DNA of 5,871 nucleotides, from the IMG/VR virus record IMGVR_UViG_2534682252_000030, one strand, 5' to 3'. Shown one piece after another: positions 1-5,644 of the stretch. The position numbers were made by a program, and so were the translations under genes. The DNA comes from a virus (lineage: Duplodnaviria > Heunggongvirae > Uroviricota > Caudoviricetes). How positions within the stretch are numbered: position 1 is the first letter of the stretch; each line of letters opens with the position of its first letter. The notes under the pieces are model-generated. The model was not told where the DNA came from, made no database searches, and saw only the letters and a program-made list of their open reading frames with translations.

Positions 1-461
1 GATCATCGCTTCAGTTCCTGTATCAGCAGAGTCAGGAGCTTTTCGCTGACATTGCCATTGAAGCGGAGCGTCCCGTGCCGGAACGTTACCTCACAGCTGA
101 TACTGAGGGTTTCCGGGTCCTCTGCGAGCGATTCTGGCTGTTCGGCAGCTGCGTCGAGAGTCACAGGAAGTAGCTGGGGGCTCTCTGAAGAAGGTAATAG
201 CAGCTTTCCCTCGCGCCATTGTTGTCGCCATTTGAACAACAGATTGGCGTTAATGCCATTTTCAAGAGCAAGTTTTGAGATGGATATCCCGGGTTCACAG
301 GAGGCAGCAACGAGCTGCTGTTTAAATTCGGGAGGATAATTAGGGCAGCCTTTTCGCCTGCCGGGAGTCACATTTTTCTGCATATCTGATACTTTGGTTC
401 CCACTACTTATTTGGTGGACACCACTTTGTCTAATTCGTCAGATTCTGACCAGACGGTTCA
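1..461 (-). mobile_element. Inner end of an IS66-family-like insertion sequence; element continues past window start, exact terminus not resolvable (between 384 and 461)
   Basis: tnpA-like ORF at 3-383 replaces the expected large-terminase gene directly after a truncated Nu1-like ORF. The minus-strand sequence at the junction begins TGAACCG, and its TGA is the stop codon of the truncated ORF. No canonical IS66 GTAAGCG-type end was seen and the other end is outside the window. Confidence 0.4.
3..383 (-). CDS. IS66-family TnpA-like (orf1) accessory transposase protein; ATG at 383 preferred over the GTG at 404 used by the ORF track
   Basis: Translation MQKNVTPGRRKGCPNYPPEFKQQLVAASCEPGISISKLALENGINANLLFKWRQQW has the HTH pattern of IS orfA proteins. 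The C-terminus CEVTFRHGTLRFNGNVSEKLLTLLIQELKR resembles the conserved C-terminal block of IS66 TnpA as I recall it. No obvious Shine-Dalgarno sequence. Confidence 0.55.
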   Translation of the reverse strand: MQKNVTPGRRKGCPNYPPEFKQQLVAASCEPGISISKLALENGINANLLFKWRQQWREGKLLLPSSESPQLLPVTLDAAAEQPESLAEDPETLSISCEVTFRHGTLRFNGNVSEKLLTLLIQELKR

Positions 462-917: not shown

Positions 918-929
918 AGGTCGCCGCCC
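918..929 (-). other. cosN: 12-nt cohesive-end sequence GGGCGGCGACCT (minus strand), lambda-type
   Basis: Minus strand 929 to 885 reads GGGCGGCGACCTCGCGGGTTTTCGCTATTTATGAAAATTTTCCGG, matching the lambda left end as I remember it. The other side (930-975) matches the lambda right end ...TGATAATAATTATCATTT.GCGGGTCCTTTCCGGCGATCCGACAGGTTACG. Confidence 0.85.
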
Positions 930-1128: not shown

Positions 1129-1353
1129 ATGTCAACGAAGAACAGAACCCGCAGAACAACAACCCGCAACATCCGCTTTCCTAACCAAATGATTGAACAA
1201 ATTAACATCGCTCTTGATCAGAAAGGTTCAGGTAATTTTTCAGCGTGGGTTATTGAAGCCTGCAGAAGAAGATTAATTAATGAAAAACATGCTCAATTTG
1301 TACCCAACAAAGACAAACACGACCAGAGCACCTGTTCAGACAGGTTTACTTAA
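1129..1353 (+). CDS. Small ribbon-helix-helix-like DNA-binding protein, YlcI/YnfO (DUF3950)-like prophage protein, 74 aa
   Basis: Complete ORF with ATG. RNIRFPNQMIEQINIALDQ...NFSAWVIEACRRRL fits a beta-strand/helix/helix Arc-MetJ pattern. The N-terminus MSTKNRTRRTTTRNIRFPNQMIEQINIAL matches my recollection of the K-12 DLP12/Qin YlcI/YnfO proteins. Followed by an intrinsic terminator. Confidence 0.55.
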   Translation: MSTKNRTRRTTTRNIRFPNQMIEQINIALDQKGSGNFSAWVIEACRRRLINEKHAQFVPNKDKHDQSTCSDRFT

Positions 1354-1372
1354 ACGACTTATATATGACACA

Positions 1373-1397
1373 AAAAGCGACCACTAAAGTCGCTTTT
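1373..1397. terminator. Bidirectional rho-independent terminator between convergent genes
   Basis: Stem AAAAGCGAC (1373-1381), loop CACTAAA, stem GTCGCTTTT (1389-1397). A-run on one side and T-run on the other. Lies between the stop at 1353 (+) and the stop at 1435 (-). Confidence 0.7.
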
Positions 1398-1434
1398 TCT
1401 TATGGTAACAGGCAATAACGCTCACAGATATTTT

Positions 1435-1749
1435 TTAGCATTTTTTTGTACCGCGCGTTTCCGGACGTATTCTGTTCTCCTGTCCCTTTATATCGTCGGA
1501 ATACCCGCCGCTCTTCAAATCCCATTCCCAACTCAGAATGTAGTCTGTTGACCGCTTGTTTATTTCTGTCAGGTTCATCGGTGAAACCGGAGTCCGGCGC
1601 GCCTTACGCAAACACTCTGCTCGTTTCTGTGCCGCCACTTTTCTTTTCTGGTCATCACTTAGCTGTACCATCACTTTTGCCCATCGTTCAGCTGCTCTCC
1701 GGTACAGTCCTTTTTTCTCCAGACATTCTGCCAGGTGATCATGTAGCAT
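1435..1749 (-). CDS. PerC-family-like transcriptional activator (Pch-like), 104 aa; assignment by motif memory
   Basis: ATG at 1749 with GGAGG 7 nt upstream. N-terminal motif AECLEKKGLYRRAAERW resembles the conserved PerC-family block. Lysine/arginine-rich. Sits in the moron position between Rz and cos, behind a 460-bp AT-rich region. Confidence 0.45.
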   Translation of the reverse strand: MLHDHLAECLEKKGLYRRAAERWAKVMVQLSDDQKRKVAAQKRAECLRKARRTPVSPMNLTEINKRSTDYILSWEWDLKSGGYSDDIKGQENRIRPETRGTKKC

Positions 1750-2213
1750 AAGTGACCTCCGATTATCTACAGACTGCTATCCTGAATTTACCTTCCTTTA
1801 ATGAAATAACAATAAAAAATAAATCACAGAAAAACAACAAAACAACACACAAAAAAACCAAATAATAAACCCAAATAATCACCTTATTTTATTATTTTTT
1901 GAGAGAGCTATTACTGAACAAAAAACGCTGACTATATACTCAAAACCAAACAACTATTCTGCCAATCAGGTATAATGGCAACACAAGGAATTACCGTGTT
2001 TTTGCCTTCTCTGCCCATACAATACGGACATATACTTCATACTCTATTGTAATATTTCCATCCATGCGAACAACTTCATTTATCTGTAAATAATATTCAA
2101 AATATTTATCACAGAAATCGTTTTTGGCCATGAACTGAGCACACTATAAAGTCCGGAACTGACTCTTTGTTAAATTACCTTAACGTTACCAGTAACACCT
2201 TCATAACAAAACA

Positions 2214-2681
2214 TCACGGTATACACTGGGTACGGATATATTCCTGTGCTCCTTCCAGTTGCTTCTGCATTGCCATCAGCCGTTCTCTGAGGATGAAATA
2301 ATCCCGTTCAGCGGCTTCTGCCAGTCGGGGACCGGTTGCATTATCCACGCCGGAGGTGATGGGGGCTTTACGCAAGGAGCCTGGACAGTTGGCGTTGATG
2401 CGCAGGCGCTTACGACCAGCGGCAACATCAGCACGCAGAGTTTCATTTTCAGCTCTCGCATCGGCTAATTCCCTCGAGTATCTGGCATCAAGTGCAGCGA
2501 CATCACGCTGGCGTACCTGCATATCAGTAATTGTCACGTTCGCCAGCTTCAGCTCACTGGCTTTTTTATCGCGTTGCGCTTTGTAGGTAATGGCGTTATC
2601 GCGGTAATGATTCAGCCCCAGACTAAGCACACCACAGGCTACCAGCAGGACAATAATCACCACACACAGAACACGGTTCAT
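2214..2681 (-). CDS. Rz: Rz i-spanin (inner-membrane spanin subunit), 155 aa
   Basis: MNRVL...[45 protein letters not shown]...[20 protein letters not shown] aligns along its length with lambda Rz. N-terminal TM segment present. Confidence 0.9.
2276..2461 (-). CDS. Rz1: Rz1 o-spanin lipoprotein, embedded in the +1 frame of Rz
   Basis: [20 protein letters not shown]...[32 protein letters not shown] matches lambda Rz1, including the lipobox (VVSAC) and proline-rich core. True start may be the internal Met at about 2446. Confidence 0.85.
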
Positions 2682-3754: not shown

Positions 3755-4098
3755 TCAGGCCAGCGGTGGAGTCTTCAGAGAACCCGTAATTATTCCCGGT
3801 AGTTTTCCTCTGTAGGTTATCAACACATCCTGCGCCTCTAAAATTACGGGACGCTTTTCCGGTAACGGACCATCCCCTTCACATAACCCGGCAGCAACAT
3901 CCATGAAAAACTGCTTCGCCTGCTTTTTCGCCTCAGCTTCGTAAAACTCCAGCGTGGCACCTTCAGTACGGTCAAGACTAATCGCCACATCTGGCAACAA
4001 CAGTGACGGATACCCACCAATTTCCGGTGCCACAGTAACAGTAATCTTATCCGGGTAATTATTTATCCCTTTAACACCCAGTTCGTATTTTTCTTCAT
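3755..4098 (-). pseudogene. YdfR-like (DUF1327-like) small protein gene between holin and endolysin, disrupted by an apparent 1-nt deletion in an A5 run
   Basis: ATG at 4098 with GGGGGGAG 7 nt upstream opens MKKNTNWVLKG then stops. One extra A in the A-run (4088-4092) would join it to the long open frame MKKKYELGVKGINNYPDKITVTVAPEIGGYPSLLLPD...TPPLA ending at 3755. The track ORF 3755-4033 is the GTG-initiated tail of that frame. Family name is from memory of Qin gene order (essQ-ydfR-rrrQ). Confidence 0.45.
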
Positions 4099-4102
4099 CG
4101 CT

Positions 4103-4306
4103 TTACTCCCCCCGCGCCGCCTTACGACGGTCCTCTCTGATTTTGAAATACAGGTTAGTCAGATACGTCAGCAGGCCAAACAGCAGACTCCCAGCACACC
4201 GATTGCCACCCACTGGACGGAGAGACTTTGTCCAGCAGCTGCAGTAACCAGTATCCCGTCCCACCGCTGACGTGGTGTATGACACACCTGTTGTGATTTT
4301 TTCCAT
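4103..4306 (-). pseudogene. S: Class II pinholin (S21 / EssD-like) gene carrying three apparent single-nucleotide deletions
   Basis: The annotated frame gives [16 protein letters not shown]...[28 protein letters not shown], with a holin-like N- and C-terminus but a scrambled middle. The holin-like middle appears in the other two frames: [14 protein letters not shown], then QWVAIGVLG. Frame switches fall near 4260-4267, 4215-4218 and 4190-4192, each in a G or C run. Confidence 0.7.
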
Positions 4307-4571: not shown

Positions 4572-4596
4572 TGAACCGCCCCGGAAATCCTGGAGA
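4572..4596 (+). repeat. IS left inverted repeat (IRL)
   Basis: TGAACCGCCCCGGAAATCCTGGAGA; matches the reverse complement of the right end at 22/25 positions. Confidence 0.8.
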
Positions 4597-4625
4597 CTAA
4601 ACTCCCTGAGAAAGAGGTAAACAGG

Positions 4626-4952
4626 ATGACTAAAAATACTCGTTTTTCCCCCGAAGTCCGTCAGCGGGCGATTCGTATGGTTCTGGAAAGTCAGGATGAA
4701 TATGACTCACAGTGGGCGGCAATTTGTTCCATTGCCCCAAAGATTGGCTGTACGCCGGAGACTCTGCGTGTCTGGGTTCGCCAGCATGAGCGGGATACCG
4801 GGGGCGGTGATGGTGGGCTCACCAGCGCTGAACGTCAGCGTCTGAAAGAGCTGGAACGTGAAAATCGTGAACTGCGCCGCAGTAACGATATCCTTCGCCA
4901 GGCTTCCGCTTATTTTGCGAAGGCGGAGTTCGACCGCCTCTGGAAAAAATGA
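4626..4952 (+). CDS. IS3-family transposase OrfA (HTH / leucine-zipper DNA-binding component), 108 aa
   Basis: [22 protein letters not shown]...[34 protein letters not shown] is a typical IS629-group OrfA. SD-like GAGG upstream. Confidence 0.85.
4943..4949 (+). other. Candidate -1 programmed frameshift site (A-run) at the orfA/orfB overlap
   Basis: A6 run 4944-4949 directly before the orfA stop TGA (4950-4952), with orfB in the -1 frame starting ATGATG at 4949. IS3-family transposases are normally made as an OrfAB fusion by -1 frameshifting on an A-rich heptamer. Confidence 0.5.
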
Positions 4953-5602
4953 TGCCACTGCTGGATAAGCTGCGTGAGCAGTACGGGGTCGGACCGGTAT
5001 GCAGCGAACTGCATATTGCCCCGTCAACGTATTACCATTGTCAGCAACAGCGACATCATCCGGATAAACGCAGTGCCCGTGCGCAGCACGACGACTGGCT
5101 GAAGAGAGAGATACAGCGCGTATACGATGAAAATCATCAGGTGTACGGTGTGCGTAAAGTCTGGCGTCAGTTGTTACGGGAAGGAATCAGGGTGGCCAGA
5201 TGTACAGTGGCACGTCTCATGGCGGTTATGGGACTTGCCGGTGTTCTCCGGGGTAAATGGGCCCGTCGTCCGTCTGGCACCATCCATCACAGCGATAAAG
5301 GCTCTCAGTATGTGTCACTGGCCTATACGGAGCGACTAAAAGAAGCCGGATTACTGGCATCAACAGGGAGTACAGGCGACTCGTATGACAACGCGATGGC
5401 TGAGAGCATCAATGGTCTTTACAAAGCGGAGGTAATACACCGTAAGAGCTGGAAAAACCGTGCAGAAGTGGAACTGGCCACACTAACGTGGGTGGACTGG
5501 TATAACAATCGACGATTGCTGGGAAGGCTGGGCCATACTCCTCCGGCAGAAGCAGAAAAAGCTTATTATGCTTCCATCGGAAACGATGATCTGGCAGCCT
5601 GA
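4949..5602 (+). CDS. IS3-family transposase OrfB (DDE catalytic component) with an in-frame internal deletion of about 75-80 codons; probably catalytically dead
   Basis: 217 aa versus roughly 290 aa for IS3-family OrfB. Only about 11 residues separate GVLRGK from HHSDKGSQY (second catalytic Asp), where full-length proteins carry about 80 residues including the first Asp (D.TY motif). Downstream [15 protein letters not shown] block is intact. Junction near 5255-5260. Confidence 0.75.
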
Positions 5603-5619
5603 GTTCACAGATAAAACAC

Positions 5620-5644
5620 TCTCCAGGAAACCCGGGGCGGTTCA
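5620..5644 (-). repeat. IS right inverted repeat (IRR)
   Basis: Reverse complement reads TGAACCGCCCCGGGTTTCCTGGAGA. Confidence 0.8.

Follow-up and report, generated by a model that had tools for sequence, protein, structure and literature searches.

A 5,871-nucleotide stretch of viral DNA (IMG/VR record IMGVR_UViG_2534682252_000030; the window, below) holds a small basic reading frame between the lysis gene Rz and the cohesive end, preceded by a long AT-rich stretch, and it raises the question of which regulator the frame encodes and what the DNA ahead of it contributes. The initial annotation proposed a PerC-like regulator carried as a moron, with an upstream stretch of the kind associated with H-NS-silenced acquired regulators that could also hide a small RNA. 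The gene and the two positions at which its reading departs from other copies are as follows.

1435 to 1749, minus strand: pchC-type group-1 pch gene of the PerC family, assigned by Pfam PF06069 and by identity to Sakai pchC.
1556 to 1562 (about 1559), minus strand: loss of one nucleotide from a homopolymer, T4 to T3 on the plus strand (A4 to A3 in the mRNA), seen by alignment to other copies.
1449, minus strand: insertion of one nucleotide that restores the frame three codons before the stop, seen by alignment to other copies.

The ORF list of the window gives an ATG-started frame of 104 amino acids at 1435..1749 on the minus strand, and its translation carries the AECLEKKGLYRRAAERW block N-terminally and is basic (pI 9.75; 24 K+R versus 15 D+E), as annotated. 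The profile search against Pfam matched PerC (PF06069, E value = 7.8e-32, 109.8 bits, gathering score 22.6), which bears out the proposed assignment, although the match covers profile positions 1 to 66 only and not the whole domain (positions 1 to 90). The protein has the size and charge of PerC proteins (about 90 to 105 amino acids, basic), with a pI of 10.33 for the canonical protein versus the 9.75 of the window protein. A PDB sequence search returned no PerC-family relative with a solved structure.

We then ran a 947-bp query, made up of the pch gene and its upstream region, against 5426 complete E. coli genomes and recovered 689 records in 674 of them, with a median of three copies per genome. 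The best matches were 99.7% identical to the query and carried the RefSeq label 'PerC family transcriptional regulator'; the counterpart in Sakai is pchC (ECs_2737, prophage Sp14), labeled 'PchABC family transcriptional regulator'. The pchA, pchB, and pchC genes have a 315-bp CDS and are told apart only at nucleotides 16, 172, and 183 (PMC5931665). In the allele alignment, the window CDS has C16, A172, and A183, like Sakai pchC, whereas pchA has G, G, and C. With its two private indels removed, the window CDS is Sakai pchC exactly, the near-identity that marks group 1; a substitution relative to Sakai pchC lies at 1424, directly 3' of the stop codon. Judged by its sequence, the gene is a pchC allele of the ECs_2737 type, belonging to the PerC family and located in an E. 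coli O157:H7 Sp14-type lambdoid prophage. PchA, PchB, and PchC act as master activators of the EHEC LEE type III secretion island, so recognizing this gene is useful for annotation.

The prophage setting of the gene is defined by the following neighbors.

2214 to 2681, minus strand: Rz spanin gene (Pfam Phage_lysis, E value = 2e-46), with Rz1 embedded at 2276 to 2461; the last lysis gene upstream of the module.
1129 to 1353, plus strand: YlcI/YnfO (DUF3950) gene, convergent with pch (Pfam DUF3950, E value = 9.7e-20, and RefSeq).
918 to 929, minus strand: the lambda cohesive-end sequence GGGCGGCGACCT (cosN), with one occurrence and 0 expected by chance.
459 to 734: small terminase gene disrupted by an IS66-family element, N-terminal part.

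On the minus strand, a holin gene is followed by a YdfR-family gene, an endolysin gene, two small ORFs, Rz/Rz1 (counterparts in Sakai, ECs_2738 and ECs_2739), a gap of 464 bp, and pch, and the order across the window is holin, endolysin, Rz/Rz1, pch, the ylcI-like gene, cos, and Nu1. The gene thus lies between Rz and cos, where it had been placed, and, like group-1 Pch genes, it follows the lysis cassette of a lambdoid prophage. The moron reading also fits, as the upstream region, the gene, and a terminator hairpin fill the Rz-to-cos slot and their GC content is unlike that of the flanks. The same module (YlcI, 81 nt, pch, about 464 nt, Rz) is found again in O157, O111:H8, and O145 and in a marmot STEC (STEC299) and a monkey isolate (A25). 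Taking the evidence as a whole, we are highly confident that the locus is pchC with its native control region, a moron that fills the slot between Rz and cos in a lambdoid O157:H7 prophage of the Sp14 type; its two indels probably stem from error.

The ends of the window carry insertion sequences. Positions 1 to 1164, which comprise the left end of ISEc8 (IS66 family, tnpA at 3..404), the terminase fragment, and cos, are 99.9% identical to Sakai Sp4. Since this part is Sp4-like while the pch module is of the Sp14 (pchC) type, the prophage would be a mosaic or a strain-specific arrangement; the arrangement of the window was found at 100% identity in no RefSeq complete genome. In Sakai Sp4 (32131-37402), the block of cos, small terminase gene, and ISEc8 end is oriented oppositely, relative to the window, to the pchA-Rz-endolysin-holin block, and a partial IS629 directly adjoins pchA. 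The orientation and the adjoining IS629 together suggest an IS-mediated rearrangement. At the other end, an IS629/IS1203 copy (4572-5644, plus strand) has an internal deletion of 237 bp that leaves an OrfB of 217 amino acids; it matches at 100% identity the IS629 labeled 'partial' in the annotation of Sakai Sp4, and its ALIL frameshifting pseudoknot is intact (Rfam, 121.5 bits, 4907-5023).

Next, we looked into the DNA ahead of the gene, whose anatomy was read from an alignment of seven alleles.

1750 to 2213, minus strand: AT-rich pch upstream region of 464 bp (promoter/regulatory DNA and 5' leader), set apart by its GC content and its linkage to pch.
2100 to 2213, minus strand: almost invariant distal block adjoining the Rz stop (alignment columns about 88 to 200, few of them variable).
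About 1800 to 1905, minus strand: tract rich in T and G on the sense strand, about 50 to 150 nt upstream of the ATG, with the lowest GC content and the most variation.

The GC content of 1750-2213 is 31.7%, compared with 48.1% for the window as a whole. Among 5408 sliding windows of 464 nt, just 8 have a lower value, and the lowest window that does not overlap the region stands at 38.4%. The longest stop-free stretch inside it is 53 codons, so that the description of a long, AT-rich, ORF-free stretch holds in substance, with the qualification that small ORFs of 37, 39, and 46 amino acids exist within it and one of 44 amino acids (2167..2301) straddles its edge. The region is 100% identical in many O157 genomes, including at the pchC locus of Sakai. 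When used alone as a query it was recovered in 688 records with a coverage of 80% or more in each, and the gene fragment likewise gave 688; it thus accompanies pch in all of the matching records and travels with the gene.

Conservation within the region is uneven. The near-invariance of 2100..2213 holds even against strain A25, which is 86% identical overall. Alignment columns 401 to 550 hold 48 variable positions in 150 columns, versus 0 to 7 per 50 columns elsewhere, and the GC content falls to 28% over the 200 nt of 1801-2000. Among the seven alleles, conservation returns in roughly the final 60 nt ahead of the pch ATG. The upstream regions of pchA and pchB differ from the pchC type by about 5%. 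On the plus strand, 1826-1884 is rich in C and A (...cacagaaaaacaacaaaacaacacacaaaaaaacc...) and the sense strand therefore rich in G and U, with a superficial resemblance to GcvB-type seed/target motifs in what is the least conserved part of the module.

Signals that could serve the expression of pch were located as follows.

1755 to 1760, minus strand: Shine-Dalgarno sequence GGAGGT, 5 nt upstream of the ATG, read from the sequence.
1733 to 1736, minus strand: predicted anti-Shine-Dalgarno ACCU in codons 5 and 6, pairing with AGGU of the Shine-Dalgarno sequence in the minimum free energy fold.
1785 to 1812, minus strand: candidate proximal promoter TTGTTA-16-TAAATT (8 of 12 positions), picked by eye and below the threshold of the promoter scan.
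1953 to 1981, minus strand: candidate distal sigma-70-like promoter TTGCCA-17-AATAGT (9 of 12 positions), the sole match of the promoter scan.
1372 to 1398, both strands: probable bidirectional intrinsic terminator, a hairpin flanked by A and T runs and common to pch (minus strand) and the ylcI-like gene (plus strand), seen by folding.

The Shine-Dalgarno sequence is kept in all of the aligned alleles and in E. albertii. The hairpin that would sequester it has a minimum free energy of -15.7 kcal/mol and is not statistically distinctive (z = -1.0 against shuffled sequences), and it is thus consistent with occlusion of the kind described for pchA but no proof of it; the base equivalent to the anti-Shine-Dalgarno C16 is G in pchA. 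A duplex with the whole small RNA DicF was predicted at -48 kcal/mol, versus a mean of -43 (standard deviation, 3.5) for shuffled sequences, which does not set it apart from them, and we gave this result no weight. E. albertii, whose homology with the module stops about 90 nt ahead of the ATG, shares part of the candidate proximal promoter block. The distal match alone is no evidence for a promoter, since 2.3 such matches are expected by chance. The hairpin at 1372..1398 (-11.9 kcal/mol on the plus strand and -14.7 on the minus strand) is invariant in all of the aligned alleles, and the simple terminator scan did not flag it.

Published work on the Pch proteins supplies the frame in which these signals can be placed. 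PchA, PchB, and PchC are the EHEC counterparts of EPEC PerC and are needed for full expression of ler and the LEE and for adherence (PMC4456613, PMC6265319), and each of the three, when cloned, activated a ler fusion by a factor of 4 or more (PMC5931665). At the LEE1 promoter region, to which it binds, Pch reduces occupancy by H-NS and StpA, and it activates only when the promoter is silenced by H-NS/StpA/Hha/YdgT (PMC4764244); Pch is thus an anti-silencer. Upstream of Pch, LrhA activates pchA and pchB (PMC4456613, PMC13012123), and Lrp with butyrate acts at the pchA promoter (PMC7279287), the promoter regions of pchA and pchB being the published targets of LrhA and of Lrp-butyrate (PMC4456613, PMC7279287). 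The NtrC and sigma-S pathways also feed into pch control (PMC10714755). At the level of translation, DicF relieves the structure between Shine-Dalgarno and anti-Shine-Dalgarno in pchA mRNA (PMC7769764, PMC9438474, PMC7873438). Finally, treatment of strain PA20 with an SOS-inducing drug produced a rise of about 8-fold that was specific to pchC (PMC5931665).

In the working that we propose, the basic Pch protein of about 104 amino acids would bind AT-rich DNA at the LEE1 (ler) promoter and cut its occupancy by H-NS and StpA, as the literature on PchA, PchB, and PchC describes; ler would be de-silenced and, via Ler, the whole LEE type III secretion island would be switched on. Three inputs may set the level of Pch. 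The first would be the gene's own promoter in the 464-bp region, responsive to LrhA and to Lrp-butyrate signals, which were shown for pchA and pchB and are extended here to this copy. The second would be control of translation through a Shine-Dalgarno hairpin opened by DicF, shown for pchA, with a comparable hairpin predicted here. The third is probably read-through from the late operon after induction: the terminator scan found no terminator between Rz and pch, and pch is oriented like the lysis genes, two observations from which we infer read-through and with which the SOS-linked rise of pchC in PA20 agrees. The hairpin at 1372-1398 would end both the pch transcript and the convergent ylcI-like one.

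A different account of the AT-rich region, which we consider possible on a tentative footing, makes it mainly a nucleation platform on which H-NS silences pch until it is counter-silenced, with the specific activators secondary. The low GC content expected of an H-NS-silenced acquired promoter is present (31.7% versus 48%), together with several A/T runs of at least 8 nt, and H-NS has been reported on the virulence genes that phages are known to carry in Sakai (PMC4764244). A butyrate sensor built on pchA needed a strain with hns deleted in order to work, an effect that was attributed to the LEE1 promoter (PMC7279287). The high-affinity H-NS motif, however, is not enriched: tCG(t/a)T(a/t)AATT with up to 2 mismatches occurs 19 times in the window, versus 18.7 expected, and only 2 of these sites fall in 1750-2213. 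Conservation is also lowest where the region is richest in AT, and our literature search found no report of H-NS binding or repression specific to pch. Of the comparison with H-NS-silenced regulators, the low GC content therefore stands and the enrichment of high-affinity sites does not, and silencing of the pchC promoter by H-NS is plausible.

Returning to the gene as a pchC allele, we examined the two indels that separate the window from every other copy examined. The loss near 1559 shifts the frame after codon 63, and residues 64 to 101 are read in a frame used by no other allele. As the insertion at 1449 compensates for the loss, the length of the ORF and its last three residues are kept while residues 64 to 101 are misread, which is why the PerC match ends at position 66 of the 90 in the profile. 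The canonical allele, that is, the window sequence with both indels reversed, matches PerC over positions 1 to 89 at 150 bits, versus positions 1 to 66 at 110 bits for the window, and the frame-shifted tail of 41 residues had no Pfam match when searched alone. The homologs in E. albertii and in another Escherichia species are in the canonical frame, with a strongly conserved IKQAVN.LH.ELGMGFEER.VFRRY.

The variant was sought in several collections. A 140-nt query over both sites reached a best identity of 98.6% in 688 complete-genome records (1874 places), and the variant was absent from them. All of the IMG/VR contigs with the locus (13 of 13) are canonical at every private site that they cover, and exact 28- to 29-mers across the indels (the 29-mer spanning 1449) were found in no viral contig, a pattern scan of IMG/VR that was backed by a positive control and a per-contig check. 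Metagenome contigs likewise contained no 28-mer across the indel. The exact window protein is missing from a collection of 15 billion proteins in which the canonical protein is present on more than 1000 contigs. Compared with the closest complete genome, the window carries 5 substitutions and 6 single-base indels in 5.26 kb, and five of the six indels are one-base homopolymer losses (one in pch, three in the holin gene, and one in the YdfR-family gene). Similar private indels are scattered over this locus in draft IMG/VR contigs. Because the window has four further homopolymer losses of one base, error is indicated as the cause of the pchC indels, and we judge it probable that they arose in sequencing or assembly.

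The rival reading, in which both indels are genuine and the gene is a decaying or altered pchC that keeps the N-terminal two-thirds of PerC and gains a novel tail of 38 residues, appears unlikely to us. The prophage is visibly degraded, with ISEc8 inside its small terminase gene and its IS629 internally deleted, and the ORF stays open at exactly 104 amino acids. The insertion at 1449 is not a simple homopolymer miscount, and an exact compensation by two indels is somewhat unexpected under random error; these last two points count in its favor. Against it, the variant occurs nowhere else among the 1874 complete-genome places, the 13 viral contigs, the metagenome scan, and the 15 billion proteins, and the four additional losses that wreck the holin and YdfR genes follow a pattern typical of read errors. 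A protein made from a genuine allele might lack activity or else interfere with PchA and PchB; should both indels be real, the conserved C-terminal third of the PerC domain would be missing from this copy, which is then probably inactive.

The other two damaged genes were also inspected. In the class II holin ORF (4103-4306, minus strand), one-base homopolymer losses at 4190, 4215, and 4260 relative to the closest genome together leave the ORF open at 67 rather than 68 amino acids with about 25 central residues scrambled, a compensated damage like that in pchC. In the YdfR-family gene (3755-4099, minus strand), a T6-to-T5 loss at 4088 frameshifts the N terminus and leaves open a GTG-started remnant of 92 amino acids.

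With error in the source assembly as the preferred explanation, the 104-amino-acid reading of the window is not the real PchC, and homopolymer positions need to be corrected or verified before protein-level inferences are drawn from this assembly. Earlier publications already cover the gene and its family, where it lies in the prophage, and what the upstream region does in regulation, and the finding is an ordinary one; the frame-scrambled tail is its only unusual aspect, and this is most simply an assembly error.

The least probable of the readings gives 1750-2213 an independent product besides the pch promoter, either a small RNA or the peptide encoded by the following ORF.

1991 to 2131, minus strand: ORF of 46 amino acids, probably no gene, given its substitution pattern and the lack of a family match.

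Alleles that diverge elsewhere are nearly invariant in the distal part (about 2100-2213), and the 46-amino-acid ORF is intact in 7 of 7 alleles and entered as a hypothetical protein in some annotations, its only labels being 'unknown protein ... CP-933R' or hypothetical. Furthermore, O157 prophages are known to be rich in small RNA genes (PMC4104026), and the Hfq-CRAC small RNA catalogue for Sakai places prophage small RNAs near PR' morons. On the other side, Rfam 15 (E value of at most 1) gave no match in 1750-2213, the only one in the window being the IS629 ALIL pseudoknot; the scan for intrinsic terminators found none on either strand of 1300-2350; and fold z-scores of 120-nt tiles on both strands ranged from -1.7 to +1.4. 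The pch loci are unmentioned in the Hfq-CRAC supplements, the small RNA catalogues and supplements that we searched contain no pch-locus entry, and the RefSeq (PGAP) records examined have no feature annotated inside the 464-bp region. The suggestion that the upstream stretch hides a small RNA thus drew no support from Rfam, terminators, or fold z-scores, and we rejected it, the region having no Rfam match, no terminator, and tiled folds unremarkable beside shuffled sequences.

We also rejected a small protein from the 46-amino-acid ORF, which had no match in Pfam or NCBIfam and no substitution pattern of the coding type. The 10 variable sites of this ORF split 3:4:3 by codon position, with 8 in amino-acid-changing codons, compared with 7:3:10, half of them silent, for the pch CDS in the same alleles. 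Equally improbable in our estimate is that 2100-2213 or the G/U-rich leader acts as a regulatory RNA element in cis or trans (for example, a long structured or Hfq-binding 5' leader, or an RNA from the late transcript that might couple induction to activation of the LEE) or that the scrambled PchC acts as a dominant-negative allele.

Taking the locus as pchC with its native control region, we compared it with known systems. The closest is the PchC locus of Sakai (ECs_2737, Sp14), which it resembles in the gene, in the flanks (YlcI-like gene, terminator, 464 bp, Rz), and in the diagnostic bases. The window differs from that locus by the one base lost and one gained in the CDS, by the substitution at 1424, by ISEc8 in the small terminase gene, and by the internal deletion of IS629. 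In phage lambda, the space between Rz and cos is taken by the bor moron, which is likewise an accessory gene expressed from the prophage that affects the interaction of host and pathogen; bor, however, encodes an unrelated lipoprotein, lies on the opposite strand, and is without a long AT-rich control region.

PchA (ECs_1091, Sp4) and PchB (ECs_2182, Sp11) are LEE1-activating paralogs with the same module architecture, differing at three CDS nucleotides (PMC5931665). The upstream region of the pchA copy that we examined is about 95% identical to that of the window, and the differences consist of clustered substitutions and changes in the T-rich tract. Regulation by LrhA is reported for pchA and pchB and not for pchC (PMC4456613, PMC13012123), whereas the SOS response is reported for pchC (PMC5931665).

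PerC of EPEC (perABC, on the pEAF plasmid) belongs to the same PF06069 family and has the same LEE1/ler target (PMC4456613, PMC4764244). PerC is plasmid-borne, comes third in an operon that PerA controls, and can be dispensed with for LEE expression in EPEC; in EHEC, that expression requires the pch genes, which are monocistronic morons of prophages (PMC4764244). PchD and PchE (groups 2 and 3 of O157:H7) likewise belong to the PerC family, and the same strain carries their genes on prophages or prophage-like elements (PMC6265319). They diverge from group 1 in both sequence and size and hardly affect ler; PchE represses curli and flagella (PMC6265319, PMC7369912). The window gene clearly belongs to group 1.

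The Pch homolog at 2501-2792 of a locus in E. albertii NBRC 107761 has no phage lysis cassette upstream; an ORF resembling FliE lies about 1.7 kb upstream of it, and only about 90 nt upstream of its start can be aligned with the E. coli module. Its upstream 200 nt are nevertheless very AT-rich too (27.5% GC).
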